Source: Acidobacteriota bacterium
GTDB taxonomy: Bacteria > Acidobacteriota > UBA4820
Length of the DNA: 64,000 nt
Assembly (NCBI GenBank): GCA_029559035.1
Contig: JAKQCT010000061.1
Location: forward strand, 94,162-158,161
Direction of reading: 5' to 3'
Shown: positions 20,671 to 62,106 of the stretch, piece after piece
Layout: every line of letters begins with the position of its first letter
How positions within the stretch are numbered: position 1 is the stretch's first letter
Program-made: the position numbers and the translations under genes
Notes under the pieces: generated by a model
Databases searched by the model: none
Told to the model about the DNA's origin: nothing
What the model saw: the letters and a program-made list of their open reading frames with translations, nothing else

Positions 20671-20908
20671 GAAGCGCTGATGGCTGACGCCAGACTGAAG
20701 GCTGAAGGGTCAACAAGGAAATGATTCCACAAATTTAAAATTTAATCTTTAAAATTTGATATTTAATATTCAAGCGAAGCCGCATGGCTGACGCCAGGCT
20801 GAAGGCTGAAGGCTGAAGGGTCAATAAGGAAACAGATTCCTCAATTTTTCACTTTTCAATTTTCATTTTTAAATTTTCAATCACGGTTAAATGCCCGGCG
20901 CAGCCGGC
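20671..20908 (+). repeat. modular intergenic repeat, 2 tandem units (locus R1)
   Basis: Each unit has tggctgacgccag, (gctgaag)2-3, the tcaa(c/t)aaggaaa..gattcc.caatttt core, an AT-rich (ttttcaa)n block, and a terminal hairpin (caagcgaagc / ccggcGCAgccgg). It ends at the macro-domain gene stop. Confidence 0.8.
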
Positions 20909-20909
20909 T

Positions 20910-21431
20910 TTAACCTAAATGCTTCGCCGATTCCATGAACGCCTGGTATGTCTCGTCGTCGAAGAGGACTATGTGGACCTCTTCGGGGTATTCGTGGGAT
21001 TCGAAGAAATCACGGACCGTATGCAGGAGTATCTCCGCGCCGTTTCTGACCGGGAAGCCCGCTATGCCCATCCCGACCGCCGGCATGGCGATCTTCGCGA
21101 ATTTCCACTCCTCGGCCCTTTTCAACGAATTGATAACGGCGTTCCGCAGGCTATCTTCAGTGCACGGTTCCCTCGTGCCCATAGCGGCCGCGTGGATGAC
21201 ATAATCGGCGGGAAGCAGTCCGGCGCCCGTGACAACCGCCTCTCCCAGCGGAATGGATCCTATCCTGTCGCACTCCCGCTGGATCGAGGGGCCTCCCTTT
21301 TCCCTGATGGCCCCGGCGACGCCTCCTCCAAGCACCAGTTCCTTGTTGGCGGCGTTGACTATCGCGTCGACCTGCATTTCGGTGATATCGCCTTTTTCTA
21401 TGAAGATGCGGCTGTTCAGGATTCCAGCCAT
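20910..21431 (-). CDS. macro domain protein (O-acetyl-ADP-ribose deacetylase, MacroD/YmdB-like)
   Basis: GDITEMQVDAIVNAAN...GGGVAGAI and HAAAMG motifs. Confidence 0.85.
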   Translation of the reverse strand: MAGILNSRIFIEKGDITEMQVDAIVNAANKELVLGGGVAGAIREKGGPSIQRECDRIGSIPLGEAVVTGAGLLPADYVIHAAAMGTREPCTEDSLRNAVINSLKRAEEWKFAKIAMPAVGMGIAGFPVRNGAEILLHTVRDFFESHEYPEEVHIVLFDDETYQAFMESAKHLG

Positions 21432-23662
21432 TTTTCGATCTCCTCCTCGGAAATAAGGATCTCGCGGGATTTAACCCCGTTGGGAGGGCCGACGATGCCG
21501 CGCTCCTCCATGTTGTCCAGTAGTCTCGCCGCCCTCGCGTAGCCCAGCCTCATCTTCCTCTGGAGGTTGCTGGCCGTGGCGATCTTCGTTGAAACGACCA
21601 GCTTGACGGCGTCCTTGAAGAGCGGATCCTCGTAATTGTCCGCGCTGTCGGCTTCCCCGCTCAGGATGTCGCTCTTCTCCTTGAGCACCACGCTGTCGAA
21701 CTCCTGAGGCGCCTGCCTCGCTATGTACTGGATCACCCTCTGCGTCTCGATGGTCGAAAGGAAACCTCCGTGGATCCTGATCACGCGCGAAGAGCCTGGC
21801 GGGAGGAAGAGCATGTCTCCCTTGCCTTCGAGCGTTTCCGCTCCGTTCTGGTCGAGGATCAGCCTGCTCTCCAGTTTTTCGCGCACCTGGAAGGCCACCC
21901 TGGCCGGCAGGTTGCTCTTGATGACGCCGGTGATTACATCCCTCGAGGGCCTCTGCGTGGCAATTATCAGGTGTATGCCGACGGCGCGCGCCATCGCGGA
22001 GAGCCTGCCTATCGCCGTCTCGACCTCCTTCGCGACGACCGCCATCAGGTCGTAGAGCTCGTCAATTACTATCACGATGTACGGGATCGGCCTGGTCAGG
22101 GGGATCGCTTCGTCGTGGCCGTGGGGCGTGAGCGTCTTCACGAACCTGTTGTACTGCTCGATCGACCTGACCTGCGCCGCCGCGAAAAGCTTGTAGCGCT
22201 CCTGCATCTCCTTGAGGACCCATGTCAGCGCGCTCGCGGCTTTCTTGACATCCGTGACGACGGGGGTGAGCAGATGCGGCAGCCCCTCGTAGATCTTCAG
22301 CTCCACCTGCTTCGGGTCGATCATGATGAACTTGACCTCTTCGGGGCTGGACCTGAAGAGGATCGAATTGATGAGTGCGTTTATCCCGACGCTCTTTCCG
22401 GAGCCGGTCGTCCCGGCGACAAGCAGGTGCGGCATTTCCGTGAGGCTCGAAACGTACGGCGTTCCGTCCACGAGCTTCCCCATGGCGAGGGGCAGTTTCG
22501 TCGTGCTTTTCCTAAAATGATCCGATTCGACCAGCTCCCTGAAAGATATGAGCTCTCTCGATTCGTTCGGTATCTCCACCGCGATCGTCGCCGCCCCGGA
22601 CATCCTGTCGATGCGGACATGCTCCTTCCTGAGCCTGATCGCGAGATCCTCGGACGACTGCACCACCTTGGAGAACTTCACTCCGGCGGCCGGCTTGAAC
22701 TCGTAGATAGTCACCACAGGGCCGGGATGGATCTCGAGAACCTCCCCGGGAATGTCGAACTCGCCGAGCTTCTCTTCGATCTGTTTCGCCTGGACAAGCA
22801 GGGATTTGTCGTCGTAGGGAAGCTTGGACAGCGGCGGATCCAGAAGGTCCGCCGGAGGCAGCCTGTAGTCGCTTTCGTCGTCCGTCTCGAGAGGCAGGGG
22901 GGGCGCTTCCGGCTCTTCCTCCTGCTTGGCCGGGGCCTTCTCCCTGGTCTTCTGAGGGGGGGACGCCTTCTTTGCGGCTTCCGTCTGCTGGGCCCACTTC
23001 AGCCGGGCCTCTTCCACTTCCTGCTTTTCTTTCTCTTTCCTGCTTCTTTCCTTTTTCAGCCTGCGGTTCTCGAGGTACTTCCTGAATGGCGACGCGGCGG
23101 CCCGGAAAGGAGAGAGGGGCGAGAACCCGAAAAGGAATGCGAGACTCAGGAGGAACCATACCAGCGCCACGGCGAGAGCGCCGATCATGCCCATCCACGC
23201 GGAGAGCAGGGCGCCGATCACTATCCCGAAGAGGCCTCCCGAATGGACCGCGGCGTTCTGGCCCCAGAGAAAGGGGTTGAACTCGCCCACGGTCACGCTC
23301 ATCAGGAGCGAGAAGCTTGCCGCGAGAGATCCCCAGAGGATCAGCGGATAGAGCGAGTTTCCGCAGAGGACCCGCCAGCCCGAATAGAAGAGCATCGCGG
23401 GAACGATCAGCGCCGCGAAACCGAGCATGCCCACGAGAAGGTCCGCGAGGTAGGAACCCAGCCCTCCTACCCAGTTCATGGGTATCTTCGAGAAATTTCC
23501 CACCGCTTTCGAGAAAAAGCCCGGATCGAGAGGATGATATGAAACAAGGGAAAGGAGCGCCAGCAGGCCGGCAATCCAGAGGACCACCACCACGCTTTCG
23601 CGCATGGCGGTCCGCGATCGGTCCGAAACCGGGCTTTCCTTCAACAATCCGTTCGAGGCCAA
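21416..23662 (-). CDS. ftsK: DNA translocase FtsK/SpoIIIE
   Basis: N-terminal 4-TM domain, Pro/Glu-rich linker, motor domain with Walker A GTTGSGKS, C-terminal gamma (winged-helix KOPS-reading) domain ASNLQRKMRLGYARAARLLD. Confidence 0.9.
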   Translation of the reverse strand: MASNGLLKESPVSDRSRTAMRESVVVVLWIAGLLALLSLVSYHPLDPGFFSKAVGNFSKIPMNWVGGLGSYLADLLVGMLGFAALIVPAMLFYSGWRVLCGNSLYPLILWGSLAASFSLLMSVTVGEFNPFLWGQNAAVHSGGLFGIVIGALLSAWMGMIGALAVALVWFLLSLAFLFGFSPLSPFRAAASPFRKYLENRRLKKERSRKEKEKQEVEEARLKWAQQTEAAKKASPPQKTREKAPAKQEEEPEAPPLPLETDDESDYRLPPADLLDPPLSKLPYDDKSLLVQAKQIEEKLGEFDIPGEVLEIHPGPVVTIYEFKPAAGVKFSKVVQSSEDLAIRLRKEHVRIDRMSGAATIAVEIPNESRELISFRELVESDHFRKSTTKLPLAMGKLVDGTPYVSSLTEMPHLLVAGTTGSGKSVGINALINSILFRSSPEEVKFIMIDPKQVELKIYEGLPHLLTPVVTDVKKAASALTWVLKEMQERYKLFAAAQVRSIEQYNRFVKTLTPHGHDEAIPLTRPIPYIVIVIDELYDLMAVVAKEVETAIGRLSAMARAVGIHLIIATQRPSRDVITGVIKSNLPARVAFQVREKLESRLILDQNGAETLEGKGDMLFLPPGSSRVIRIHGGFLSTIETQRVIQYIARQAPQEFDSVVLKEKSDILSGEADSADNYEDPLFKDAVKLVVSTKIATASNLQRKMRLGYARAARLLDNMEERGIVGPPNGVKSREILISEEEIEKWLES

Positions 23663-23760
23663 ATCCTTGTCCCTCCCTGACCTTCTCTGACCATTTAAAA
23701 ATACCTCTTTTCACGATTTATAGCAAGATTGACGGGGCATTGGAGGCGGTCGGGGCCGTT

Positions 23761-23788
23761 TTGTCCCAGCCGGGAATGAGGCTATAAT
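23761..23788 (+). promoter_or_regulatory. candidate sigma70 promoter for the MFS gene (TTGTCC-N16-TATAAT)
   Basis: ttgtcc 23761-23766, tataat 23783-23788. GGAG RBS and a TTG start at 23809 follow. Confidence 0.3.
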
Positions 23789-23808
23789 CAGCCATTGGAG
23801 ACGGTTCG

Positions 23809-24984: not shown

Positions 24985-25543
24985 TCTTCGTTATTTCCGC
25001 GCCGAGGCTTCTCAGCGACGCGATCATCGAAAGGACGGGCCTTATGTCTCCCTCTATCGAGCCTCCGGCCCTCAGTTCGTAGGAATGCTCGGGAGCGTAA
25101 AGCTCCACTCCCTTCGCCCCTTCCCGAAAGGTCTCCGTGATCTTCTTCCTTAACTCCACGCGGACGCCTTCCTCCGGCTTTTCAAGAAGCAGTTTTGCCT
25201 TCCCGCCCGCTTCCCTGCTGAAAAGCTCGATGGAGAAAAGCGCGGAAGCCTTGGAGTAAGCGCGGAATGTTTTCTCGGCGGCGGGGAACCCTTCTTTTTC
25301 GAGAGCGGAGAGCGCTTCCATCACGGCGGCCCGCGCCGGTTCGGGGACCAGCAGGTGCGCGACCTCCTCCCCCGGATGAGCCAACTCCTGGAGGAGTTCC
25401 CTGAAACTTTCCCTCTCTATCTCTTCCCTTTCGAGGTTGAGCACTTCCGACGCGTCACCCCTGGCCCTCAGCCATCCCCTTATGAACCCTTCGCCGATGC
25501 CCCTGGCTGTTGATATAACCATTTCGACATATTTCTGAGACAC
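24971..25543 (-). CDS. hypothetical protein (GTG start), last gene of a 3-gene minus-strand operon
   Basis: Balanced composition with GGAGGG 7 nt upstream of GTG. Converges with and overlaps the MFS gene 3' end by 14 nt. No family recognised. Confidence 0.45.
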   Translation of the reverse strand: MSQKYVEMVISTARGIGEGFIRGWLRARGDASEVLNLEREEIERESFRELLQELAHPGEEVAHLLVPEPARAAVMEALSALEKEGFPAAEKTFRAYSKASALFSIELFSREAGGKAKLLLEKPEEGVRVELRKKITETFREGAKGVELYAPEHSYELRAGGSIEGDIRPVLSMIASLRSLGAEITKITLS

Positions 25544-25553
25544 TGCGGCCCTC

Positions 25554-28294: not shown

Positions 28295-28370
28295 TCAACT
28301 CCTTGCGGGCCTCAAAAGCCCAATAAATGGTATATCCTGGAGCAGGTTAAGTCAAGGCGATAACTCGCCG

Positions 28371-28431
28371 GCGCTGAAGGCTGATGGCTGATGGCTGATG
28401 GCAAGAATAAATAGGGAACAGGAATTGATCC
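28371..28431 (+). repeat. degenerate partial unit of the modular repeat (gctgaag then (gctgatg)3, with a diverged core)
   Basis: gcgctgaaggctgatggctgatggctgatggcaagaataaatagggaacaggaattgatcc. Confidence 0.5.
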
Positions 28432-28565
28432 CGCCCAAACAAGCCAGTGCGTGAAGAACCGGGATCTCGCGCCAAAACAGATCGAACCATGTCCCACTAT
28501 CCGCGAGCGAAAAAGCGCCTCCATCACTAATGACGGATTGGCGAGGCGGAGTGTCTATGGCGATA

Positions 28566-28833
28566 GGGCGGAAGGCTGACGGCTGAAGGCTGGTGTCCTT
28601 CGGACGGCGCTGAAGGCTGAAGAGTTGAAGCGCTGAAGTTAAATATGGAATGGGATCTCTTTGGTAGGCGCGGGCTTTACGCCCGCGGGCGCGCCCGTGA
28701 AGGGCGCGCCTACCCAAAAACCCCACGCTCTCGCTCTCTCCCTTTGCAAAGGGGGTTCAAGGGGGTTTTCCCACAATTTTTCACTTTTCAATTTTCAACT
28801 TTCATTTTTCATTGCAAGCGAAGCATCGCCCCC
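28566..28833 (+). repeat. modular repeat unit (locus R2) carrying a ~110-bp GC-hairpin insertion
   Basis: The heptamer block includes the gtccttcggac stem-loop sub-module. The core is interrupted at 28661-28770 by three GC palindromes. The unit then resumes with ttttcacttttcaattttcaactttcatttttcattgcaagcgaagcatcgccccc. Confidence 0.7.
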
Positions 28834-28845
28834 GGGCAATTGATA

Positions 28846-46128: not shown

Positions 46129-49100
46129 ATGAAAAGATCCTTCGCTTTTCAGGTCTCTTTACTAATGCTGGCGGCGGTCGTACTGGCGGGCGTATCTTCA
46201 TTAGGGCAGGACAAGCTTCTTGCCGGCGGCGGCAGGGTCGATCTTCCGCCCGGCGCGAGCGGCGACTGGTGGTCCACCGTCCAGCAGAACATCATGGAGG
46301 AGGAATACCATTTTTCCCCCTCATCAGGCGAGAAGAACGCCCTCTACCAGGCGCCCAACAGGGCGCATGGTTTCAGGAGCTACTTCAACGAGAAGGGCGT
46401 CAGGCTCGTCCCGAGGACGGAGGAGAAGCCTTCTTGGGAGTTGGGACTGGAGCTTGCCGGAAAGGCTGAAGGCTCAAGGCTGAAGGCTGATGTAAAAGCC
46501 GACGGCGACAGGATCGAGATAAACAGGGGCGATATCGTCGAATGGTACGTCAACGACGAGAACGGACTCGAACAGGGCTTCACGATTTTGAGGCCGCTTC
46601 CCTCTACCGAACCGGGCAAACTGAGCCTCGACATGAAGCTGACGGGCAACCTGCTCCCCCGTTTTTCTGAAGACGGCCTGGAAGTGACATTTTTCAAAGA
46701 GGGGGGTATCAGCGTCCTGAGCTACCGTGAACTGATCGTTAAAGATTCGGAAGGCAGGCTTCTTGCATCCGGTTTTATCCCCATCCGGGGAGGCATCAGG
46801 ATCTCGATCGACGACGATAATGCGATATATCCCATCACCATCGACCCGATGCTTTCTGCTCCCGCCTGGACCTGGGAACCGAACCAGGCTCTCGCGAGTT
46901 TCGGTCAATCCGTCTCATCGGCGGGCGACGTGAACGGCGACGGCTACAGTGATGTCATCATATCGGCGCACAGATACGACAACGGCCAGAACGAAGAAGG
47001 CAGGGTGTATGTCTTTCACGGTTCGGCTTCAGGGCTCTCTTCCAGCCCGGACTGGACCGCGGAATCCGACCAGGCTGAAGCCTATTTCGGACACAGTGTT
47101 TCCACGGCAGGGGATGTGAACGGAGACGGTTACAGCGATGTGATCATCGGCGCGAGATTGTTCGATAACGGACAGACGAACGAAGGAAGGGCTTTTGTCT
47201 ACCACGGATCGTCTTCGGGGCTTTCCCCGACACCCGCATGGACAGCCGAATCCGACCAGGGAGAGGCATTTTTCGGCATGAGCGTTTCGACTGCCGGCGA
47301 CATCAACGGGGACGGATATTCGGATGTCATCGTGGGGGCGCCATATTATCAAAGCGGCGTGCTGGAAGAAGACGAAGGAGCAGTTTTCTTTTATCCCGGC
47401 TCTTCCTCCGGGTTGAGCCCGACTTCCACCTGGAGCAGGCAGGGAAACCTTGCCGGGGCCAATTTCGGGTACAGCGTTTCCAACGCCGGGGATGTGAACG
47501 GTGACGGATACAGCGACATAATTGTCGGAGCCAGATACTATTCCAACGGACAGTCGGAAGAAGGAAGGGTGTATGTCTATCCGGGATCCAACAAGGGTCT
47601 GCAGGCAGCGATCTGGATCAAGGAGCTGGACATAGCGAACGCCAATTTCGGGTACAGCGTCTCGGACGCCGGCGACGTGAACGGCGACGGATACGGAGAC
47701 GTGACCATTGCCGCCCCCGGAACGGCTCTCGCGTATGTCTATCACGGTTCTTCCTCCGGCCCGGGTTCTTCCGCGGCATGGACGGGAACGGGAGCTTCCT
47801 GCGTGTCTTCAGCCGGCGACGCCAACGGCGACGGGTTCGGCGACATCGTAACAGCGTCCGCCGCATACGACAACGGTCAGACAGACGAAGGAGCCGGGTT
47901 CGTCTTTTTCGGGTCGTCTTCGGGGCTTTCCGCGACAGCCGATTGGATCGGGGAGTCAAATCAGACTTACGCCTATCTCGGTAGTTGTTCGTCCGCGGGA
48001 GATGTCAACGGCGACGGTTTCTCGGACATTCTCCTTGGTTCTACCTATTACAGCAACGGAGAAACCTCGGAGGGAAGGGCGTTCCTTTATTATGGAAGCG
48101 GGTCCGGCATCGCCGCAACTCCCTCCGCGGTCCGAGATTCAAATCAGGCGGAGGCTAAATTCGGGACGAGCGTTTCATCGGCAGGCGACGTCAACGGGGA
48201 CGGCTACGGCGACATCCTGGTAGGAGCTCCTTACTACGACAACGGCCAGGCTGACGAAGGCGCCGCTTTTGTCTATTACGGATCATATTCCGGACCATCT
48301 TCAACTCCCGACTGGATCGGGGAATCCAATAACGCTGGAGCGTTGTTCGGCTTCAGCGTGGCTCCCGCGGGCGACATCAACGGCGACGGGTTCGGAGACA
48401 TCCTAGTCGGAGCACCGGAGTTTACCAACGGGCAAGCCGAAGAAGGAGCTACGTTCGCTTATTACGGATCCGCGACCGGGCTCTCTGCGACTCCCGACTG
48501 GACCGTGGAATCTGACCAGGGATACTCATATTTCGGATGCAGTGTCGCCTCCGCAGGTGATGTGAACAGTGACGGCCGACATGATGTTATTGTCGGAGCC
48601 CGTTATTATTATCTTGGCGAGAACTGGGAAGGAGCCGCTTTTGTTTATCACGGATCGGCCGCGGGATTGTCCCTGACCCCCAGCTGGACAGGGCAATCTG
48701 ACCAGGAGGATGCCAGTTACGGTTTCAGCGTTTCCGGCGGAGGGGATATCAACCTCGACGGTTACGACGATATTATCGTCGGCGCTCCCCTTTTCGACAA
48801 CGGAAACACCGACGAGGGCGCCGCATTCGTTTATCTGGGATCGGCCTCCGGCGTCCATTCCTCCCATTACTGGCGGGGCGAATGCAACCAGGACGGCGCC
48901 TGGTATGGATACAGCCTCGCCTCTTTGGGAACTGTCAACAGGGATACCGCCCCGGAGATCGTCATCGGAGCTCCCCGTTATTCGTATGGCAGTTTATCCG
49001 AAGCTGGAAGGGTCGATATCCACACTCTCTACTCGCTTCCCGACCAATCCCCTGAATGGACGACGGGATCTGACCAGGCAGGTGCCATGATGGGTTACTC

Positions 49101-50222: not shown

Positions 50223-50250
50223 GGGCGCGATCCGTCGCGCCCTATTTTTT
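50223..50250 (+). terminator. rho-independent terminator after the FG-GAP gene
   Basis: gggcgcga-tccg-tcgcgccc followed by tatttttt. Overlaps the stop of the convergent small ORF. Confidence 0.5.
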
Positions 50251-50469
50251 CCGCAGCTCCCTTCTTTTCCTGAACCACTCCTCCGCGGCTGTCAGCGCGC
50301 CCGCAGACCATTTGCCGAAGCCGACTCTTGTCATGATCCTGTCCAGGCCGTTTATCATCCAAAGGATCCATCTTTCGGCTGTGAAGACAAGAACGGCCAG
50401 CAGGAAGGCCGCCAGGATGGTCGTGACGAGAAGAATCAGCGTGATCATGGACCCATTATAACCCGTCAA
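50242..50469 (-). CDS. small membrane protein, hypothetical
   Basis: 75 aa with one strong TM helix (ITLILLVTTILAAFLLAVLVF) and a basic C-terminus. Confidence 0.4.
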   Translation of the reverse strand: MTGYNGSMITLILLVTTILAAFLLAVLVFTAERWILWMINGLDRIMTRVGFGKWSAGALTAAEEWFRKRRELRKK

Positions 50470-50470: not shown

Positions 50471-50734
50471 GGCTGAGAGCTGAAGCCTGACTTCAGTCTG
50501 AAGGCTTAAGGCTGAAGGTTGAAGTTTGATAGGGGAAATGGATTCCATAATTTTAAGCTTTTCAATTTTCAATCTTCAATTTTCAATGCAAGCGCAGCTT
50601 GCCGGGCTGGCGCCAAGGCCTAGGGCTGAAGCCGGATGGCTGAAGTTCTATAAGGAAATGGATTCCATAATTTTGAACTTTTCAATTTTCATTTTTCAAA
50701 TTTCAATGCAAGCGCAGCTTGCCTGATAATCCCC
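50471..50734 (+). repeat. modular intergenic repeat, 2 units (locus R3)
   Basis: ggctgagagctgaag...ctgaaggttgaagtttgataggggaaatggattccataattttaagcttttcaattttcaatcttcaattttcaatgcaagcgcagcttgcc, then a second unit ending caagcgcagcttgcctgataatcccc. Confidence 0.8.
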
Positions 50735-50820: not shown

Positions 50821-52797
50821 ATGAAATTCCTCGCGAAAGTTTTTGTCGGCCTCGGTTTTATTTTTCTTTTTTTCCTGATCGGAGCGGTCGCTCTCTACAT
50901 TTTCGGCGGGAACTGGGCGGTAAATTCCGGGTTCCTGGAAAACCTGCTGAGCCGTCACCCGGAGCGTTTCAAGATCGAATGGGAGTCTGGCAAATTCTCC
51001 ATGCCCGGCACATTCAGGCTCGAAGGACTCGCCATAAAGAGCCGCAGCGCGGGAAGGGAAACCCTCATCAAAGCGGACAAGTGCGAACTCAAGATAAAGC
51101 CTCTCAAGCTCTTCCTCTGCAAGGCGGACTTCAGGGATGCCCGGGCTGAAGGCTTCACCCTCTGGACGAGGCGGAACGGAGAAGCAGGCGCGCGGGACCC
51201 GCTTGCGCCCCCTATAACGGAAAACGCCGGAAACACCGGCCACCACGGAGGGGGCGGAAAAATCGCCTCACCTTGGAGCCTCAGCTTCGGAAAACTTAAG
51301 ATCAACGAAATCCGCGAGATCTGGATAGACTCCTACAGGACCAACGGGGTATGCTCCGCGGAAGCGAACTTCTATTTCCGGATCAGGGGCGCCATGGAAG
51401 CGCGCGACGTACGGTTCTCCCTGAAAGACGCCACCATGAGGAAAGGCGCCGAAACTATCGCCTCGGGACTTGGCCTGGACATTGACGGCAGCATCGACCG
51501 CGTGATTCCGGCGAAACACAAAGGGCGTGCTTTTCTCCGTTTCGTAAACGCCAGATGCAAGGGAAAAGGCGATGTGCGGAGTCTCGGGTTCCTGAACCAG
51601 GCTTTCGGGGATAACGCCCCGGTCAGGTTCACCGGGAACGGAAACCTCCTGATGGACATATCGATAGCTCAAGGAGTCATCGGCCCCGGGTCTTCGCTTT
51701 CATGGAGCGGGAAGGGACTGACCGGCTCATCGGCGGGCGTCTCGGCGAAAGGAGACGGAGCTCTCTCCGGAGGCACCGGCGCCGGCGGAACGGCTTTCTC
51801 GCTGACCGCCAAATGGTCGAAGATCGTTGTTTCCCTGGAAGGTATACCGCCGATCCCGATCGAAGGGCCGGGATTGACCGCGGTCGTCACCACGCCCAGG
51901 CTTGACCTTGCGTCAGACAACGACGATCTTGCCGCGAAGCTTGACCTGCCGGAATCAAGGATATCCAACTTGTCGCTTCTTAACGGCTTGCTTCCCCCTC
52001 AAAGCCCGGTAGCGTTCAGTCCGGGATCGGAGGGCCGTCTCAGGGCCAACCTGGAACTGAAGGACAAGGACCCTCGCGGAGAAGCTTATATCGAAGGGAC
52101 CCGTGTCGGTATCAGCCTCAAGCAGCAGTCCTTGCGCGGCGATTTTCACGCCCTGCTGCGCTTGAGCGGAGGAGACCTCAAGGCGAAGACATTCGACATT
52201 TCAGGGAGCAAATTCGGCCTCGGGAACGCGGACCTGACAAATTCATCCGGTCAGGTTACCGATAGAGGATGGAAGGGAGATGTAGCTCTTTCGGAATCTT
52301 CTCTCAGGCTTTCGGTTCCTGCCGCGATAAAGACGAAGGCAGAAGTGACATTGTCCGACACCCGCCCTGTAATGGCCGCGCTGATACCCGAGAACAAAAT
52401 GTCGAAGTGGCTGGATCCTATCCTCGACATTCCAGATGTGAGAGGCACCGCCGAGATCGAGACCGACGGCAAGAGAACGACCGTCAGGAACGCCGACCTT
52501 CGCGGCCGCGACCTCCGCCTCATCGCGGACCTGACCATGTATGAAGGTCTCACCGAAGGTACGATGCGGGCAGAGTACCACGGCCTCTCGGGGACCATAG
52601 CTTTCAAGGGCCGGGACGTTGAGCTGAACATGGGCGGATTGAAGGTAGGCGGAGACATAGGAACTTTGGGGAAGATCGTAACCGACGTTGTGACAGACGA
52701 TGCGAACGTCGACAAGGCGGTCGGAGCCGCGAAAAAGGGATTGGACAAACTTAAGAAGCGATTCGGGAAGAAAGAAAAGGAAGGCGAGAACAAGTAG
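50821..52797 (+). CDS. AsmA-like / DUF748-type envelope protein (N-terminal TM anchor, long Gly/Ser-rich beta-rich periplasmic region)
   Basis: MKFLAKVFVGLGFIFLFFLIGAVALYIF anchor, followed by an AsmA-like N-terminal segment (ERFKIEWESGKFSMPGTFRLEGLAIKS...). Remote similarity only. Confidence 0.45.
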   Translation: MKFLAKVFVGLGFIFLFFLIGAVALYIFGGNWAVNSGFLENLLSRHPERFKIEWESGKFSMPGTFRLEGLAIKSRSAGRETLIKADKCELKIKPLKLFLCKADFRDARAEGFTLWTRRNGEAGARDPLAPPITENAGNTGHHGGGGKIASPWSLSFGKLKINEIREIWIDSYRTNGVCSAEANFYFRIRGAMEARDVRFSLKDATMRKGAETIASGLGLDIDGSIDRVIPAKHKGRAFLRFVNARCKGKGDVRSLGFLNQAFGDNAPVRFTGNGNLLMDISIAQGVIGPGSSLSWSGKGLTGSSAGVSAKGDGALSGGTGAGGTAFSLTAKWSKIVVSLEGIPPIPIEGPGLTAVVTTPRLDLASDNDDLAAKLDLPESRISNLSLLNGLLPPQSPVAFSPGSEGRLRANLELKDKDPRGEAYIEGTRVGISLKQQSLRGDFHALLRLSGGDLKAKTFDISGSKFGLGNADLTNSSGQVTDRGWKGDVALSESSLRLSVPAAIKTKAEVTLSDTRPVMAALIPENKMSKWLDPILDIPDVRGTAEIETDGKRTTVRNADLRGRDLRLIADLTMYEGLTEGTMRAEYHGLSGTIAFKGRDVELNMGGLKVGGDIGTLGKIVTDVVTDDANVDKAVGAAKKGLDKLKKRFGKKEKEGENK

Positions 52798-52805
52798 ACA
52801 ACGGG

Positions 52806-53056
52806 GCGGAAGACTGACGGCTGGCGCCAAGTATGAAGGCGGACTAGCTAGGAGGCGGGGAAGCTAGGAAGCTTGAAAGCTCCATAAGGAAATATATTCC
52901 ACAATTTTAATATTTTCATTTTTCAATCTTCAATTTTCAATTCAGGCGAAGCCATACGGCTATCGCCAGCGCTGAAGGCTGAAGGCTGAAGGTTCAATAG
53001 GGAAAATGATTTCTTAATTTTTCAATCTTCAATTTTCAATTCAGGCGAAGCCTGCT
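52806..53056 (+). repeat. modular intergenic repeat, 2 units (locus R4)
   Basis: ...ccataaggaaatatattccacaattttaatattttcatttttcaatcttcaattttcaattcaggcgaagcc..., then gcgctgaaggctgaaggctgaaggttcaatagggaaaatgatttcttaatttttcaatcttcaattttcaattcaggcgaagcctgc, ending at the adh stop. Confidence 0.8.
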
Positions 53057-54096
53057 CAGCTCAGTGTCAGCACCTTCGCGCCCCTGATCTGCCTCTGCTT
53101 GATCTGCTTGAGGGCCGTCACGGCGTCTTCAAGGTGAAAGAGCTCGACCTGAGGCTTGATGCCGAATTTATCCGCGAGCTTCAGGAATTCGTCGATGTCT
53201 TTCCTGGTCACGTTGGCCACGCTCTTGATTTCTTTCTCCTGCCAGAGGTGTTTTCCGTAATCCAGCAGCATCAGCCCCCCCTTGTCCGTGTTCTCTTTTC
53301 TTATGGCGTTGATAACAAGCCTTCCCCCCGGCTGAAGATTCTCCATGGCGCATACTACCGTTTTCCACACGGGAGTGGTGTCGATCACCGCCTTCATTCT
53401 CGCGGGGGGCTTGTCCGAAATGTCGCCCGTCCATTCCGCCCCGAGTTCTTTCGCGAACGCCCTCTCCTTGGCGCTTCTTGCGAAGACATAGAACCTGTTC
53501 TCCGGGTAGAGCGACTTGGCCAGCTTGAGAACAAGGTGCGCCGAAGCGCCGAACCCAGTGAACCCCAGATGGTCCCCCTCCTTTATGCCCGAGAGCTTGA
53601 GCGACCTGTATCCCACTGCTCCCGCGCAGAGTAGTGGCGCGGTCTCCTCGTCGGTCAAGCTGCGCGGCACCTTGAAGGCGAAGTTCTCGTCCGCGACCAT
53701 GTACTCGGCGTACCCGCCGTCCATGTCCCTTCCGGTCGCGATGTAACCCTCGCATAGGTTCTCCATCCCGCCCCGGCATTTCTCGCATTTCCCGCACGCC
53801 CAGCCTATCCATCCTACTGCGGCTCTTTCCCCAATCGTGAACTTGCGGGCGCTCGTGCCCCTCGCGACGACAGTCCCGACCACCTGGTGTCCCGGAATTA
53901 CGGGGAATTCCGGCGGAGGCGTCCTCCCCTCTATCTCGTCGAGTTCCGTGTGGCAGACGCCCGATGCCGAGACCTTGACGAGTATCTCGTTCGTCTTCGG
54001 CTCGGGGACCTCGCACTCGATCAGGTCCAGCAGGCGCCTGTCGTCGAGCACGCTTCCCGTCCTGTTTATCACCCACGCCCGCATCTTAGAAGGCAT
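53056..54096 (-). CDS. zinc-dependent alcohol dehydrogenase (MDR family)
   Basis: GVCHTELDEIEG (catalytic Zn), structural-Zn Cys cluster CGKCEKCRGGMENLC, GxGxxG-like NAD site. Confidence 0.85.
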   Translation of the reverse strand: MPSKMRAWVINRTGSVLDDRRLLDLIECEVPEPKTNEILVKVSASGVCHTELDEIEGRTPPPEFPVIPGHQVVGTVVARGTSARKFTIGERAAVGWIGWACGKCEKCRGGMENLCEGYIATGRDMDGGYAEYMVADENFAFKVPRSLTDEETAPLLCAGAVGYRSLKLSGIKEGDHLGFTGFGASAHLVLKLAKSLYPENRFYVFARSAKERAFAKELGAEWTGDISDKPPARMKAVIDTTPVWKTVVCAMENLQPGGRLVINAIRKENTDKGGLMLLDYGKHLWQEKEIKSVANVTRKDIDEFLKLADKFGIKPQVELFHLEDAVTALKQIKQRQIRGAKVLTLS

Positions 54097-56383: not shown

Positions 56384-56388
56384 GAAGG

Positions 56389-56835: not shown

Positions 56836-57320
56836 CCCTCATCCCCGTGTTTGTGACTCTCTGGCCGGTGGGGCTCGGCGAGGCGCTTGACCTCCTCGAT
56901 GAACTCGCTGATGTCTCCGAACCTCCTGTAAACGCTCGCGAAACGGACATACGCAACCTGGTCGAGCTCCTTGAGCCTGTCCATGATGATGTTGCCTATC
57001 GTGCTCGTCGGGACTTCCCTGTCGGGAGAGTTCTGAATGAGGCCTTCTATCTCGTCAGCGATCCCCTCGAGCGTCGAGGAAGGCACGGCCCTCTTCTCGC
57101 AAGCCCGGAAAAGCCCGGCGAGGAGCTTTTCCCTGTCGAACTTCTGACGGTTGCCGTCCCTCTTGACGACCTGGAACGGGATCGTTTCTATCCTTTCGTA
57201 GGTAGTGAACCTGCGGTGGCAGTCGAGGCACTCGCGCCGCCTCCTGATGCTTGCGCCCTGGGAGACCTCCCTGGAATCCACCACTTTATCTTCCATATGA
57301 CCGCAAAATGGGCAGAGCAC
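56832..57320 (-). CDS. nrdR: transcriptional repressor NrdR
   Basis: MLCPFCGH...DSRE zinc ribbon (CxxC...CxxC) plus ATP-cone. Confidence 0.9.
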   Translation of the reverse strand: MLCPFCGHMEDKVVDSREVSQGASIRRRRECLDCHRRFTTYERIETIPFQVVKRDGNRQKFDREKLLAGLFRACEKRAVPSSTLEGIADEIEGLIQNSPDREVPTSTIGNIIMDRLKELDQVAYVRFASVYRRFGDISEFIEEVKRLAEPHRPESHKHGDEG

Positions 57321-57381
57321 TGTGCACCTCCTTGAAAAAGTCTACAACATATAGTTATAAGTGTAAATAGCAAGTCAATAT

Positions 57382-57673
57382 AGGGCTGATGGCTGGCGCC
57401 TAGGCTGAAGGCTGAAGGCGGATGGCTGGTGTCCTTCGGACGGCGCTGAAGGCTGAAGCGCTGAAGTTCAATAAGGAAAATGATTCCTCAATTTTGATAT
57501 TTTCAATTTTCAATTTGATATTTTAAATGCAGGCGAAGCCTGCCGGGCTGACGCCAGAACTGAAGAGCTGAAGCGCTGAAGGCTGAAGTTCAATAAGGAA
57601 AATGATTCCACATTTTTTCACTTTTCAATCTTCACTTTTCATTTTTCAATTCAAGCTACGCTTGCCTATCCCC
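57382..57673 (+). repeat. modular intergenic repeat, 2 units (locus R5), including the gtccttcggac sub-module
   Basis: ...ggctggtgtccttcggacggcgctgaaggctgaagcgctgaagttcaataaggaaaatgattcctcaattttgatattttcaattttcaatttgatattttaaatgcaggcgaagcctgcc | gggctgacgccagaactgaag...caagctacgcttgcctatcccc. Confidence 0.85.
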
Positions 57674-57697
57674 TATTTGCCTGACCTCCCATCCTTT

Positions 57698-58762
57698 TCA
57701 GTAATAAAGATTGGGACCCCAGTTCGGAGTTTCGCCTTTATTGATGGCTTCCATGAAACAATTCGCCTCTTTCCAGAAGCTTGAACATTTCCCTAAAAAC
57801 TCGAGGACTACCTTTTTTTCTCCCTTTTCCAACAATTCCTTGGCGAGCGTCAGGTTGGGCCCGAAAGTATCGAGGTTTGGAGAACCGGGCGACTCCGAAG
57901 CTTTCAGCAGGAAGCTCTTCGCCTCATCCATTTTCCCTTCGCGCAGGGCTATTCTCCCCAGGACAAGGTTGCCGTCATAAAGCGCGTTGCCGTAATTCCA
58001 GTTCTTCATGTCCTTTTGGGCATTTTTCAGCAGAAGTCTGGCATAAGTTCCGGCCTTTTCGATCTCATCAGCTTCAAAAGCACATTTCGCAAGATCGTTA
58101 AGCAGAGGGAACCGGTACTCGTCATTTGTCTTTGCAAGAGCATAAGCTTCTTCCAAAAGCGCGAGAGCTTTGGCGTTCCTGTTTCTTGTCGATCCGGCAT
58201 CATCCTTTTCCGTCTGCCTTCCCAGGCGGTACAAGTGCGCAAGTTCTTCCGGCCATTTTGGATTGGCAGGTTCGAGTTTCTTGCATCTCAGGAACAGTTC
58301 TTCGGAGGTTGTTCTTTCGTAAAGCGTAAGAGCCCGCGCCGCGTTGCCGAGTATCGAGGCATCGGCCGGGTTTCTCTTCACGTGCCTGAGCCAGAGCTTC
58401 TTGCCTTTTTCATAAGCCTTTCCGTCAATCCTTGGATCGAGGGCGCACTCATAAACGGCCATCTTCGAGGCGGGAAAGTTATTGATGACCCAGAGAGCGT
58501 GCTTGGCGAACAACTTCCTGGCCTCAGGAGAGGATAACCGCTCCGTTCCATAATGTATAAGCAGTTTTTCCCTGGCCGCCAGATCAGAAGGGTTCTTTTT
58601 CACCTGGTTCTCTAGAGATGTAATCTCCTCTGCCGACATATTCCACTTCGAGATCAAATAGTCAGCATCATTCGATTCGTCTTCCGGTGGTCCCGCGATA
58701 GCGAAAACGGAAAACAGAAGGATCGCCGCAGAAAGGAATAATCTGTTGTTAGATCTGCGCAT
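57698..58762 (-). CDS. exported TPR-like repeat protein, hypothetical
   Basis: Start at the internal ATG (MRRSNNRLFLSAAILLFSVFAIAG, signal peptide) preceded by GGGGAGG. Helical repeat composition throughout. Confidence 0.55.
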   Translation of the reverse strand: MRRSNNRLFLSAAILLFSVFAIAGPPEDESNDADYLISKWNMSAEEITSLENQVKKNPSDLAAREKLLIHYGTERLSSPEARKLFAKHALWVINNFPASKMAVYECALDPRIDGKAYEKGKKLWLRHVKRNPADASILGNAARALTLYERTTSEELFLRCKKLEPANPKWPEELAHLYRLGRQTEKDDAGSTRNRNAKALALLEEAYALAKTNDEYRFPLLNDLAKCAFEADEIEKAGTYARLLLKNAQKDMKNWNYGNALYDGNLVLGRIALREGKMDEAKSFLLKASESPGSPNLDTFGPNLTLAKELLEKGEKKVVLEFLGKCSSFWKEANCFMEAINKGETPNWGPNLYY

Positions 58763-58787
58763 ACTTACCTCCCCTTCAACCATTTCC

Positions 58788-58987
58788 TTTTTTGCTTTTC
58801 ATTTTTCACTTCTCATTTTTCAATCTTCAATTTTAAATGCAGGCGAAGCCTGCCTGGCTGACGCCAGAACTGAAGCGTGAAGCGCTGAAGCGCTGAAGTT
58901 CAATAAGGAAAATGATTCCTCAATTTTGATATTTTCAATTTTCAATTTGATATTTAAAATGCAGGCGAAGCCTGCCTCCCCCCCTCC
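58788..58987 (+). repeat. modular intergenic repeat (locus R6): partial AT-rich/hairpin unit plus one full unit; 3' end overlaps the PPC-protein CDS terminus
   Basis: ttttttgcttttcatttttcacttctcatttttcaatcttcaattttaaatgcaggcgaagcctgcc | tggctgacgccagaactgaagcgtgaagcgctgaagcgctgaagttcaataaggaaaatgattcctc...aaaatgcaggcgaagcctgcctccccccc. Confidence 0.85.
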
Positions 58988-59772
58988 TGCCACGCGTTGG
59001 CGAGCCTGTTGTAGAGGATGGTGGTCGACTGGTTTGTTCCGCTGATGATCGTGATCGGCACCCACGATCCGTCCTTGGGGAACATCGCCTTGAGGGCGGC
59101 TCCCTTCTTCAGTTTCAAAAGGGTCGTCTCCTTGACAGTGAAATTGGTCCACTCGTTTCCGTTGATCACCACCCTTGTTCCGCTGTAGAACCTGTTCCCG
59201 AAGATCAAAAGCCTGAAGGGATTCCCTGCCTTTGAAAGACTGCTGACGGAGGGAGCTTCTCCCTGAGCACCCACGTCGACCCTCAGGAAGTAATCTGTCG
59301 GTCCCGGTTCGAAGCAGTAGTAAATAGTCGAGAGGCTGACGCCGATGATATAGGTCCCAGGCTCGAGATAAGTGTTCACGATCTCGGGGTTGCCGCAGGT
59401 TATCCCGCAGGTGTAATCGCCGCACTCGTTCAGGTTCAAGAGGTTAAGGTCCTGATCCATCAGGTATAGGTCTGCATCCACATATCCGTAAAAAAGCAGG
59501 TTCACGGAGTAATAACCGGCCTGTGAAACCGTTAAGGCGTAAAGGTCCTCGATATATTCGTCGCCGTCATCATACCCGAAGTAAAGACAGCCTTCGGTAT
59601 CTTGCGTCGAGACCGAACCGTAAACTCCCATCCCGGGATGAAGCGTCTGATAGGCGTCTCCGCCCCCCGCGAGGGTTATGCAGCCGTTAGGCTCCGCTTC
59701 GTTTATGGTCTGCGAGAATGCCGAGATCCCCACAAAAATAACAATCGACAGAACAAAAAGAGCCTTTTTCAT
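58954..59772 (-). CDS. secreted protein with pre-peptidase C-terminal (PPC)-like domain and Ig-like domain
   Basis: Signal peptide MKKALFVLSIVIFVGISAFS. EAEPNG...GGGDAYQ...DDGDEYIEDLYALTVSQAGYYSVNL...DADLYLMDQD matches PPC-domain motifs. The last 8 codons plus stop lie inside repeat R6. Confidence 0.6.
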   Translation of the reverse strand: MKKALFVLSIVIFVGISAFSQTINEAEPNGCITLAGGGDAYQTLHPGMGVYGSVSTQDTEGCLYFGYDDGDEYIEDLYALTVSQAGYYSVNLLFYGYVDADLYLMDQDLNLLNLNECGDYTCGITCGNPEIVNTYLEPGTYIIGVSLSTIYYCFEPGPTDYFLRVDVGAQGEAPSVSSLSKAGNPFRLLIFGNRFYSGTRVVINGNEWTNFTVKETTLLKLKKGAALKAMFPKDGSWVPITIISGTNQSTTILYNRLANAWQEGGRQASPAF

Positions 59773-59798
59773 ATCAACCTCCGTTTTACAGCGCCATT

Positions 59799-61181
59799 CT
59801 ACTCCATATTTTCGTCCGAGTCATCAATATTCCCTGATATCAGGAACCTGTCCGTCTGCGACACTATGATCTTGGAAAGAAGAAGGAGCGAAATCAGGTT
59901 CGGAACCGCCATCAGCCCGTTGGCTATGTCCGCGAAGCTCCAGACGCTCTTCAAAGCGACGATGCTTCCCACGAAAACGAGGAGGACCCAGAGGACCCTG
60001 TACGGGATCCTGACCTTCTCCCCGCAGAGATATTCCGCCGCCTTTTCCCCGTAATACTCCCAGCCGAGGATCGTCGAGAAGACGAAGGTGAAGAGAGAGA
60101 TAGTCAATATGGCCGGGCCGAAGAAGGAGAGGTCCGTGAAAGCTTCCTTTGTCAGAGCCGCGCCTCCGTGCCCCGCCTCCCACTTTCCCGAATTGACGAG
60201 CACAAGGCCGGTCATGGCGCAGACGACCACCGTGTCCCAGAAGGTTCCGGTCATGGAGACGAGCGCCTGCCTCACGCTGTTCTTTGTCTGTGCCGCTGCC
60301 GCGATGATCGGCGCGCTCCCGAGTCCCGATTCGTTGGAGAAGAGCCCTCTCGCCACTCCGAACCTGATAGCTTCCTTGATCGTCGCGCCCAGGAATCCTC
60401 CGATCGCCGCCTGGCCGGTGAAGGCCGAAGTGAAGATCAGCGAGATCGACCCGGGGATCTTTTCAAAATGAATCACAAGAAGGGTCAGGCAGCCAAGGAC
60501 ATAGACGATAACCATGAAAGGGACGAGCTTCTCGCAGAACGAGGCGATCCATTTGACGCCACCCAGGATGACCACGGCAGTGAAGATAGCCAGAAGAGCC
60601 CCGACGAAATAGGTCGATGTTCTCGCGCCGTTTTCGCTTACTCCGTGATGGACCAGTGTCTCCCTGAAGAGCGCGGATATCGCGTTCGCCTGGACCATGC
60701 AGCCTATCCCGAAAGCGGCGACCGCCGTGAGGAAGGCGAAGGTCACTCCGAGCCATTTCGCCTTGAGCCCCTTTTCGAGGACGTACATCGGGCCGCCGAC
60801 CACCTCACCCTTGGGATTGCGCGTCCTGAAATTGACGCTGAGAAGGGCCTCGGAGTACTTGGTCGCGATCCCGAATACGCCCGTGAGCCACATCCAGAGG
60901 ACCGCTCCCGGCCCTCCCGCGGAGACAGCCGTCGCGACGCCCACGATATTCCCCGTTCCGATCGTGGCCGCGAGCGCGGTCGTGAGCGCGCCGAACTGGC
61001 TTATCTCACCCGCGCCTTCCCTTTTCCTGCTCAGGGAGATCTTTATCGCGAGCGGGATGAACCGCTGGATGAAATTCAGCCTGAGCGTCAGGAATATGTG
61101 GGTCCCCATCAGCAGGATGAGAAGCGGGTATCCCCACACGATGTCGCTTATCTTCGAAAGGATCTGCTCCAGAACTTCCAT
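59799..61181 (-). CDS. sodium:alanine (amino acid) symporter, AGCS family
   Basis: FGALTTALAATIGTGNIVGVATAVSAGGPGAVLWMW signature of the AgcS family; ~11 TM. Confidence 0.85.
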   Translation of the reverse strand: MEVLEQILSKISDIVWGYPLLILLMGTHIFLTLRLNFIQRFIPLAIKISLSRKREGAGEISQFGALTTALAATIGTGNIVGVATAVSAGGPGAVLWMWLTGVFGIATKYSEALLSVNFRTRNPKGEVVGGPMYVLEKGLKAKWLGVTFAFLTAVAAFGIGCMVQANAISALFRETLVHHGVSENGARTSTYFVGALLAIFTAVVILGGVKWIASFCEKLVPFMVIVYVLGCLTLLVIHFEKIPGSISLIFTSAFTGQAAIGGFLGATIKEAIRFGVARGLFSNESGLGSAPIIAAAAQTKNSVRQALVSMTGTFWDTVVVCAMTGLVLVNSGKWEAGHGGAALTKEAFTDLSFFGPAILTISLFTFVFSTILGWEYYGEKAAEYLCGEKVRIPYRVLWVLLVFVGSIVALKSVWSFADIANGLMAVPNLISLLLLSKIIVSQTDRFLISGNIDDSDENME

Positions 61182-61255
61182 CTTTCCTCCAAGGAATTAT
61201 TATATCAAAGACCGGGAACGGGGAAGGATGGATCGTCCGCAGGGGGCGCACTATC

Positions 61256-61565
61256 AAGAGCTGAAGGCGGATGGCTGAAGGGTCAATAGGGAAAATGACT
61301 CCACCAAATTAGATTCTTCATTTTTCAATCTTCCATTTTTAATTCAAGCGAAGCTCGTGCAGCGCTGAAGGTTTAAGGCTGAAGCTCATTAAGGAAATGA
61401 ATACCACAAATTTCAAATTTGAAATTTAATCCTTAAAATTTAAAATGCAGGCGCTGACTGCAGGGCTGAAGTGCTGAAGTTCAAAAAGGAAATGGATTCC
61501 TCAATTTTAATATTTTCAATTTTCATTTTTCAATTTAAAATTCAAGCGAAGCTTGTAACTCCCCC
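61256..61565 (+). repeat. modular intergenic repeat, 3 units (locus R7)
   Basis: Three consecutive units, each with gctgaag-type heptamers, a tcaa.aaggaaa.g..t.c core, an AT-rich (ttttcaa)n block, and a terminal caagcgaagc / gcaggcg.. hairpin. It ends tcccc, 5 nt before the STAS gene stop. Confidence 0.8.
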
Positions 61566-61570
61566 TTTCC

Positions 61571-61900
61571 TCAGAACGATCTCAGCGCTTCTTCTTCCGT
61601 GTCGTAGATGTCGAAAACGGTGGAGAGCTTCGTGATGTCGAGAATGCCCCTGACATTCGTGGTCGGATTGGCAAGCTTGACGACCGCCTTGTAACGCTGG
61701 GCGCTGACGAGCGATGAAACAAGCTCGGCGAGGGCGGCGGAACCCATGATGGGGATGCCTCCCATCTCGAGGACGATCCTTTTTACTCCCTTGCGGAGCA
61801 TTTCGAGGACTGTCTCCCTCAAGAGGTTTTCTTCCTGGCCTATCTTTCCGGTCAGGCGTAAAAGAGCCACTCCGTTCATAAGGATGGTTTCTGACTGCAT
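61571..61900 (-). CDS. STAS domain protein (anti-sigma factor antagonist, SpoIIAA-like)
   Basis: Start at the internal Met (MQSETILMNGVALLRLTGKI...). Conserved phosphorylatable Ser region (GIPIMGSAALAELV). Confidence 0.7.
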   Translation of the reverse strand: MQSETILMNGVALLRLTGKIGQEENLLRETVLEMLRKGVKRIVLEMGGIPIMGSAALAELVSSLVSAQRYKAVVKLANPTTNVRGILDITKLSTVFDIYDTEEEALRSF

Positions 61901-61983
61901 GGATCCTCCCGACAAAGATTTTACCACAAGTCAAGCCATAAACTTATATATAACAATGCGAAAAGAAGACTGTTCAGGCGGCG

Positions 61984-62106
61984 CTTGCCGGGCTGATGGT
62001 TAACCCCAGACCTGAAGTTCAATAAGGAAATGGATTCCACAGGTTTAATATTTTCAATCTTCATTTTTCAATTCAAGCGAAGCTTGTTCTCTCCGCCTGT
62101 TACCTT
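61984..62106 (+). repeat. modular intergenic repeat, 1 unit preceded by an orphan hairpin (locus R8)
   Basis: caggcggcgcttgcc gggctgatggttaaccccagacctgaag ttcaataaggaaatggattccacaggtttaatattttcaatcttcatttttcaattcaagcgaagcttgttctctccgcc. Confidence 0.8.

Follow-up and report, generated by a model that had tools for sequence, protein, structure and literature searches.

The question addressed here is what decides the orientation of a family of short intergenic repeats that all face the same way within a stretch of 64,000 nucleotides (nt) from an Acidobacteriota bacterium (GenBank assembly GCA_029559035.1, contig JAKQCT010000061.1, positions 94,162 to 158,161). The whole of this stretch is called the window in the following. 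The repeat units make up a mosaic intergenic repeat that is non-coding and specific to its lineage. A preliminary description of the window stated that the units at all eight loci have one orientation regardless of that of the flanking genes, and took this as a hint of a strand-specific function (a transcribed RNA, an element linked to the replication strand or a directional protein-binding array) or of directional spread. When the units are followed beyond the window the orientation is found to be non-random, yet regional and not absolute. The reading favored here, to which we assign a probability of roughly 45%, is that the polarity of a unit and the direction of local transcription are coupled.

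Architecture and Orientation of the Units in the Window

A unit profile was built from 13 copies and used in an nhmmer search of both strands of the window with the filters turned off. This search gave 13 full and three partial units, spread over eight intergenic loci from 20.7 to 62.1 kb. Every one of them is on the + strand, as had been described, with the same order of modules throughout; no unit was found on the - strand of the window, where the best profile match has an E-value of 0.77 and is noise. Each unit is around 115 nt long. Read on the + strand it starts with two to five copies of a GCTGAAG-type heptamer, followed by the conserved core TTCAATAAGGAAAnnGATTCCnCAATTTT, which holds a 4-bp GGAA/TTCC mini-hairpin. 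Then come three to five AT-rich heptads, of either the TTTTCAA or the ATTTAAA type, and the unit ends in a GC hairpin with a stem of 5-7 bp and a loop that is mostly GAA or GCA (for example GCAGGC-GAA-GCCTGC). Where units form arrays they are strictly head to tail. The heptamer modules display the same bias when they are counted alone: CTGANGNCTGANG is found 15 times on the + strand and once on the - strand of the window against a chance expectation of 0.23, and TTTCANTTTTCAA 29 times and once, respectively, against 0.34. These matches make up 16 doublets of the GCTGAAG type (0.23 expected) and 30 of the TTTTCAA type (0.34 expected), with a period of seven.

The flanking genes were checked by public gene calls with Pfam, by a Pfam scan and by our own codon-usage gene finder. 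The eight loci are as follows.

R1, 20672-20906, + strand: two tandem units between a ParE toxin gene (+, ends at 20666) and a Macro-domain gene (-, stop at 20910); convergent
R2, 28356-28837, + strand: heptamer runs at 28366-28400 and 28561-28595 and one split unit, between a DUF4440 gene (-) and an MFS gene (-); co-directional
R2 split unit, 5' half 28608-28657 and 3' half 28771-28831, + strand: a foreign insert lies between the halves
R3, 50488-50731, + strand: two tandem units between an open reading frame (ORF) of 68 amino acids (-, 50242-50448) and a 658-aa ORF (+, 50821); divergent
R4, 52839-53064, + strand: two tandem units between the 658-aa ORF (+, ends at 52797) and an ADH gene (-, stop at 53056); convergent
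R5, 57382-57674, + strand: two units, preceded by a heptamer run that carries a small GTCC-TTC-GGAC hairpin, between the NrdR gene (-, start at 57320) and a 354-aa ORF (-, stop at 57698)
R6, 58781-58984, + strand: a partial unit (AT-rich heptads and hairpin only) and one full unit, between the 354-aa ORF (-) and a 272-aa ORF (-, stop at 58954)
R7, 61242-61565, + strand: three tandem units between a Na/Ala symporter gene (-, start at 61181) and a STAS gene (-, stop at 61571)
R8, 61975-62096, + strand: one unit between the STAS gene (-, start at 61900) and an OEP gene (+, start at 62159); divergent

The gene contexts in the preliminary description were confirmed by these calls: R1 and R4 are convergent, R3 and R8 divergent, and at R2, R5, R6, and R7 both genes are on the - strand. 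The 68-aa ORF at R3 is taken as a real gene because it is 90-92% conserved in two relatives.

Orientation Beyond the Window

Using other assemblies of the same organism (L157, L001, and L159), the contig could be read from around 10 kb to the left of the window to around 16 kb to its right. L-numbers denote stretches from public assemblies and metagenomes; 21 of these are short metagenome stretches that were found with a 20-base core pattern and are too short for replichore analysis. The left flank of around 10 kb contains no repeat locus, while the right flank contains four, given here in window-equivalent positions.

R9, 68.4 kb (4.4 kb past the window end), - strand: between the genes for P-II and PKD, both + in the frame of the window
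R10, around 73.5 kb, mixed: degenerate, with a core in - orientation and two hairpin remnants in +
R11, 76.0 kb, + strand: unit locus
R12, 77.1 kb, + strand: unit locus

Over the around 90 kb of the contig that were read, the orientation is thus + at 10 of 12 loci. Both orientations are found 1 kb apart on L134, a 2.9-kb contig from a related source, and L145, L131, and L147 carry two to three loci apiece with one orientation within each. Over all contigs examined, neighboring loci agree in orientation in 13 of 16 pairs (one-sided binomial p around 0.01). The tally over the 90 kb and the scattered contigs is biased, but it is not uniform. The one-orientation rule seen inside the window does not generalize, and it is not a genome-wide strand signal. 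The broad pattern AAGGAAAN{2,3}ATTCCNNANNTTT gave at least 119 chance singletons in genome contigs of unrelated taxa (L007-L125). Among viral contigs there were two matches, confined to 24 nt of the core (nhmmer E around 0.008), and these are apparently also due to chance.

Eight co-oriented loci were originally given a chance of about 1/128. This figure presumes eight independent loci of free orientation. Four of the eight sit in one gene run on the - strand. If orientation follows the genes, freedom is left only to the four convergent or divergent loci, and all four of these would be + with a chance of 1/16. Co-orientation in a single 64-kb window is weak evidence, as gene runs and a single replication direction cover all of it.

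Proposed Coupling to the Direction of Local Transcription

At those loci of the contig where both neighboring genes point the same way, the unit is antisense to them in five out of five cases (R2, R5, R6, R7, and R9). Three more firm antisense cases come from other contigs (L138/L143, L146, and position 11275 of L145), and the inverted unit at R9 falls exactly where the gene direction flips. It was correctly noted that the orientation is not neutral, as adjacent loci agree in 13 of the 16 pairs, but the orientation is not kept regardless of the flanking genes: firm co-directional units are antisense, and R9 flips together with its genes. In total there are eight firm antisense cases against at most three doubtful sense cases. 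Depending on how the doubtful ones are counted this corresponds to p around 0.04-0.2, which is suggestive but no proof.

In the co-directional units the hairpin end faces the stop codon of the upstream gene and the heptamer end the start of the next gene. The distance from the hairpin end to the upstream stop codon is 15, 28, -28, 8, and -1 nt at R2, R5, R6, R7, and L143, respectively, while it is 55-320 nt from the heptamer end to the next start codon. The gene context could be assigned for about 23 loci, of which about 11 are unidirectional, seven convergent and five divergent. Transcribed repeats of the repetitive extragenic palindromic (REP) type are mostly found between unidirectional and convergent ORFs (PMC3733652), and this is also the location of about 18 of the 23 loci. 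The selected pairing of the terminal hairpin, the restriction of terminator-like calls within units to the - strand, and the retention of units at orthologous sites in relatives, all described below, speak for the coupling as well.

Under this coupling the sense strand at the co-directional loci would be the complement of the strand that was originally called the top strand. An mRNA leaving the upstream gene would then meet the GC hairpin around 0-30 nt after the stop codon, and past the hairpin it would contain an A/U-rich stretch, the core and finally CUUCAGC repeats. The unit would most likely serve as a hairpin module at the 3'-end, either terminating transcription weakly or stabilizing the RNA end, or it might be tolerated in that orientation only. 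The resemblance to promoters of the AT-rich heptads after the hairpin would be incidental. The co-orientation of all eight loci would be a by-product: four loci lie in one - strand gene run, and the four convergent or divergent loci would be unconstrained and in + orientation by chance, at the odds of 1/16 given above.

Several observations weigh against this reading. The statistics are thin, and the possible sense cases (L136, L131 at 964, and L147 at 4829) hinge on ORFs of 46-83 aa or on a contig edge. Gene direction is confounded with replication direction. The convergent and divergent loci of the contig are biased as well, with six of seven on the + strand, and a purely local transcription rule leaves this unexplained. 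Furthermore, divergent genes flank five of the about 23 loci, and a role at the 3'-end would be senseless there. When it comes to the hairpin itself, it is followed by just 2-4 U, which makes for a poor intrinsic terminator, and G.U pairs are about equally frequent whichever strand is read (16 vs. 10), which gives no sign of a hairpin acting as RNA. Promoter-like matches are found six times on each strand. Stop-codon proximity is moreover not specific to the hairpin, because at convergent loci the heptamer end likewise lies 2-48 nt from stop codons.

Hairpins and Predicted RNA Folds

The folds predicted for single units are unremarkable on both strands, with z-scores from -2.9 to +0.5 (-2.5 to +0.2 for the + strand), and for 50 distinct units RNAalifold returned no consensus pairs, whichever strand was folded. 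Of the cells in the terminal hairpin 84.6% are paired, and over both hairpins the figure is 88%. One position of the terminal stem alternates between G-C (26 units), A-U (17 units), and C-G (one unit), and the covariation score of this hairpin is above those of all 500 shuffles. The pairing of the terminal hairpin is under selection. The count of G.U versus A.C pairs over the two hairpins, used as a measure of the strand of transcription, is nearly symmetric (16 vs. 10) and gives no strand signal.

In a terminator scan three of the unit hairpins pass, all on the - strand and none on the +, and these have tails of the ATTTTAAAT type. On the - strand a unit hairpin is followed by AUUGAAAA or AUUUUAAA, with 2-4 U. 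A canonical intrinsic terminator, GGGCGCGATCCGTCGCGCCC followed by TATTTTTT, was observed on the + strand at 50223-50242, after the gene for an FG-GAP protein. The organism thus possesses ordinary U-tract terminators, and these differ in appearance from the unit hairpins.

Alternative Explanations for the Co-orientation

From 20 to 64 kb, the - strand carries two thirds of the coding sequence. The GC skew of the window declines steadily without any switch, and the + strand is C-rich after the coding effect has been removed (third-position strand component -0.05, skew of repeat-free intergenic DNA -0.087). One replication direction therefore covers the window, and the + strand is probably the lagging strand. 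This suits an explanation where the orientation is tied to the replication strand because the units spread or are maintained through a single-stranded DNA step, for example by an HUH/Y1-type enzyme as for REPs or IS200/IS605, or by a hairpin on one template strand. Copies would then face one way with respect to the moving fork. The + orientation at 10 of the 12 loci over around 90 kb fits such a link, the bias of the convergent and divergent loci (six of seven on +) hints at a regional factor, and the two exceptions are adjacent and situated in a block where the genes are flipped too. A single later inversion of a segment at around 62-76 kb would account for R9 and R10, but this inversion is ad hoc. 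Because it would flip genes and units together, the contig cannot separate a replication rule from a transcription rule, and the link proposed in the preliminary description is thus compatible with 10 loci, has two adjacent exceptions, and is not separable from gene direction. Two further features point toward DNA. The loop of the hairpin on the + strand is mostly of the GNA type closed by C-G (GAA in eight and GCA in seven of 43 distinct hairpins), which we take to be the very stable d(GCGNAGC) DNA mini-hairpin, a lead for a role at the DNA level and not a test of it. REP-like hairpins with a GTAG tag are also present in the genome, and GTAG-type REPs have elsewhere been linked to Y1 transposases (PMC3733652, PMC6006769). 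However, no transposase, target duplication or clean boundary between empty and filled sites was found, the units are only 55-80% identical to each other, which speaks against a recent burst, and L134 holds opposite orientations 1 kb apart. By the skew, the strand with the GNA loop would be the leading-strand template and not the exposed lagging-strand template. Per-gene third-position GC skew was rejected as a means of assigning strands on the other, short contigs, as the spread between genes (-0.29 to +0.11) swamps a strand effect of 0.1. Altogether we regard the replication link as somewhat unlikely, though as the main rival of the transcription reading. It is less likely that there is no orientation rule at all, the elements being neutral and their co-orientation the outcome of shared history (inherited sites and nearby arrays seeding each other) and chance. 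The loci do seem to be old and inherited, since relatives with 78-88% Lon identity have the same sites and orientations, and they are thus not eight recent independent insertions. R5 and R6, which are 1.4 kb apart, have in common a 93-nt unit at 99% identity, both orientations occur, and the p-value for the window is only around 0.06 once gene direction is allowed for. Neutrality would nevertheless make both the agreement in 13 of 16 neighboring pairs and the eight antisense against at most three sense cases unlikely, and between loci the identity of most units is only 55-75%, with their nearest relatives often many kb away, which speaks against simple local copying.

The remaining explanations assume that the units are transcribed by themselves. 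Read on the - strand, a unit might be a small transcription unit, and the arrays tandem small-RNA genes or cassettes of terminator, promoter and leader, co-oriented with the neighboring genes. The heptads would then be the promoter (TTGAAR, 17-18 nt, TAAAAT), transcription would start at the core hairpin, the CUUCAGC repeats would resemble an anti-Shine-Dalgarno sequence, and the GC hairpin of the next unit would be the end. A hairpin, single-stranded repeats and then a GC hairpin is the order typical of small RNAs that act by base pairing or by sponging proteins. Several units do have correctly spaced promoter-like sites on the - strand which end just upstream of the core, their orientation follows the neighboring genes and the probable leading strand, and at R6 the ribosome-binding site and ATG of the 354-aa gene directly follow a partial unit. 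But the + strand has as many promoter-like matches, as is to be expected for AT-rich DNA, the -10-like hexamer is not conserved across units, the last unit of each array has no following terminator, and neither a consensus fold nor an Rfam match was obtained. We consider this rather improbable, and more so that the arrays are batteries of such units (heptad promoter, 5' mini-hairpin, CUUCAGC repeats as anti-Shine-Dalgarno-like sequence or protein sponge, and GC-hairpin terminator) making up a new multicopy family of regulatory RNAs in Aminicenantes-type Acidobacteriota. If they were, a gene-like strand bias of these - strand RNA units would explain the co-orientation. A structured RNA from the + strand, also suggested originally, would have its GCUGAAG heptamers paired with the UUUUCAA heptads, with the help of G-U wobbles, and the core as the loop between them. 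GCUGAAG and UUUCAAU can pair at six of seven positions on the + strand only, and the helix is seen in three of six single-unit folds. However, the z-scores given above are weak and similar on the - strand, RNAalifold found no pairs, G.U counts are nearly equal between the strands, ATTTAAA-type units retain GCTGAAG unchanged and thus show no compensation, and the numbers of heptamers on the two sides vary independently. At the four co-directional loci, in addition, the flanking genes have the + strand as their antisense strand. The idea of such an RNA is largely refuted and has very little probability left. Polar motifs that orient FtsK (KOPS-like) or are Chi-like were considered on account of the G-rich GCTGAAG and GCTGGTG heptamers, and were rejected as the main reading: the heptamers are on the lagging strand as judged by the skew, they are confined to intergenic arrays, and two of the 12 loci are inverted.

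Distribution, Age, and Turnover

Proteins from the window have exact copies in 26-37 blocks of a public assembly collection, among them JGI metagenomes and an assembly from activated sludge, and the region of the window is carried by a 702-kb contig (JAWDGN010000018.1) of the metagenome-assembled genome GCA_032942435.1 of an uncultured Acidobacteriota. More distant Lon homologs are labelled Aminicenantes. Except for the 93-nt unit of R5 and R6 (99%), the identity among the units of the window is 55-80% over unit plus flanks. Assemblies of the same species differ by whole units, R4 having one or two and R9 two or one. Relatives at 88% and 78% Lon identity retain the arrays, with sites and orientation unchanged but with other unit subtypes and numbers, and the R3 site is empty in the relative at 78% (L153). 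Relatives at 72% Lon identity and beyond, including L156 and L162-L164, have short intergenic gaps and no units. From these comparisons the family is confined to a narrow clade (Lon identity of at least 78%), where it is persistent and turning over, and not the result of a recent burst. Alignment of the filled R3 site with the empty one in L153, and of the R4 and R5 regions across relatives, revealed no clear target duplication or clean boundary. A unit in L137 (1255-1351) is, as compared with L146, broken after the first AT-rich heptads and runs into unrelated AT-rich sequence (GGCATAATTGCAAATATTTG...) in one assembly. This break inside an array may be an insertion or rearrangement breakpoint.

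The host lineage is uncultured and common in anaerobic digesters. The head-to-tail build together with the polarity relative to genes makes the family a clean test case for whether orientation is set by transcription, by replication or by the mode of spreading. With a copy number that varies between strains and with insertions of small repeats, the arrays will break or mis-join metagenome assemblies, and they could also act as strain markers.

Nested and Neighboring Small Repeats

The intergenic regions are mosaics of several repeat families. Those that are nested within units or found beside them are listed here together with an intragenic heptamer run.

28664-28713, no strand assigned: REP-like doublet in the core of the R2 unit, GTAG and a GC hairpin (GTAGGCGCGGGCTTTACGCCCGCG) followed by an inverted copy ending in CTAC
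28714-28769, after the REP-like doublet: second small module, the palindrome CCCTTTGCAAAGGGG and a GGGGG run
46458-46492, + strand: GCTGAAG-type heptamer run, in frame inside the + strand ORF of an FG-GAP protein (1343-1361 aa); heptamer module without core or hairpin

An REP-like insert of the R2 type occurs once in the window, and is also present in unit cores of L143, L146, L134, and L153, while related GTAG hairpins are found in L131 and L145. Its recurrence in unit cores suggests that it might be a REPIN-type element that targets the core hairpin. The second module recurs beside REP-like hairpins in L143, L145, and L131. At R11, around 76.1 kb in window-equivalent position, the unit in L159 (17540-17665) is split by an unrelated element of around 118 nt (CCCACGGGCTTACGCCCGGGG...GGAGGGACTCC...) which is absent in L161 (7904-8022). 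Copies of this element flank arrays in L139 and L146, and it is a third small repeat family, with presence/absence polymorphism.

Some further features were noted. A stretch of around 65 nt, GAGCCTATCCGGAAATAAGACATGGCCGCGACGGTAGTTGTCGGAGATGCATGGCGCGGAAGCG, belongs to another repeat family and is found at two intergenic sites of the same contig around 79 kb apart (L001 2830-2897 and L157 12330-12395). Downstream of the array in L136 (2800-2870), and also in L133, there is a promoter-like TTGACA-17-TAGTTT site followed by ATGTTGAAAGGGAAAAGCCGGGGGATTGAAAC, which resembles a lone CRISPR-type repeat ending in ATTGAAAC. The window also contains a 1520-aa ORF on the - strand (13513-18075) with at least 13 tandem repeats of around 150-162 nt (families D3 and D4), probably encoding a beta-propeller or repeat protein. 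The codon-usage gene finder shortened this ORF because its codon usage is atypical. No tRNA was found in the window. A search of the whole window against Rfam 15 gave no match at gathering score, and only noise was found for 57300-62200 at E-values up to 5.

Relation to Known Repeats

The closest kinds are the mosaic repeats of the type of REPs and bacterial interspersed mosaic elements (BIMEs), and the elements made of heptamer repeats. Among the latter, the cyanobacterial short tandemly repeated repetitive (STRR) sequences are tandem heptamer direct repeats found in intergenic regions. The BOX elements of Streptococcus pneumoniae, which have the structure boxA-boxB(n)-boxC and fold into long stable RNA structures, are like the units described here modular and intergenic, with an internal module of variable copy number and no coding capacity. 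The two have no similarity in sequence or modules, however, and the units lack a long stable RNA fold. Two other kinds were tried and rejected. The units are not miniature inverted-repeat transposable elements, as their ends (GCTGAAG... and ...GCCTGCC) are not inverted copies and the comparison of filled and empty R3 sites showed no target duplication. Integron attC sites, which were brought to mind by co-oriented repeats of around 120 bp, do not fit either, since the flanks are syntenic housekeeping genes, the tandem units have no cassettes between them, and inverted core sites are missing.

In Geobacter metallireducens multicopy elements with heptanucleotide repeats have been described, GGACCGG in four copies and MTYCTGA in five (PMC2700814). 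These and the units found here are alike in that dozens of intergenic, occasionally intragenic, copies have four to five tandem heptamers, are species-specific and have been described from sequence only. The heptamers themselves differ, and the layout with two arrays, core and hairpin, or with tandem 115-nt units, is not in the Geobacter description. Direct repeats of the heptamer TAACTGA are found in Beggiatoaceae, Cyanobacteria, and Bacteroidetes, with 169 direct sets against one inverted in one genome, and they precede start codons by a few nucleotides, oriented in the sense direction (PMC4679880). They share with the units the tandem intergenic direct repeats and a strong polarity relative to the adjacent gene. 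The heptamers of the units, in contrast, differ in sequence, are antisense, lie 55-320 nt from the next start codon and form part of a composite unit.

REPs are defined as palindromes of 20-40 bp that have the tetranucleotide GTAG or CGTC at one of their ends (PMC3733652). Proteobacterial REPs, BIMEs, and REPINs (PMC3733652, PMC3116915) and the units are all short, non-coding and intergenic, have a GC hairpin with compensatory changes in the stem, and form mosaic arrays. Both kinds are mostly found after gene ends, are clade-specific and persist at fixed sites. However, in none of 43 distinct terminal hairpins of the units is the stem directly adjoined by GTAG or CGTC, and inverted doublets of units do not occur; in units followed by GGGCTGACGCC, and in these alone, a CGTC lies on the - strand at a distance of around 6 nt from the stem. 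REPs moreover lack the two heptamer arrays and the non-palindromic core that make up most of a unit, and the units are always arranged head to tail. The nested insert at 28664-28713 does carry the GTAG tag of an REP, and is an element separate from the unit. Neither a RAYT gene nor a Y1_Tnp domain was present among the Pfam calls over around 90 kb of the 702-kb contig and the scattered fragments. No paper with these heptamer arrays was found in the literature searched. The family thus appears to be undescribed, and to belong to a general kind that is known, the polar intergenic repeats.

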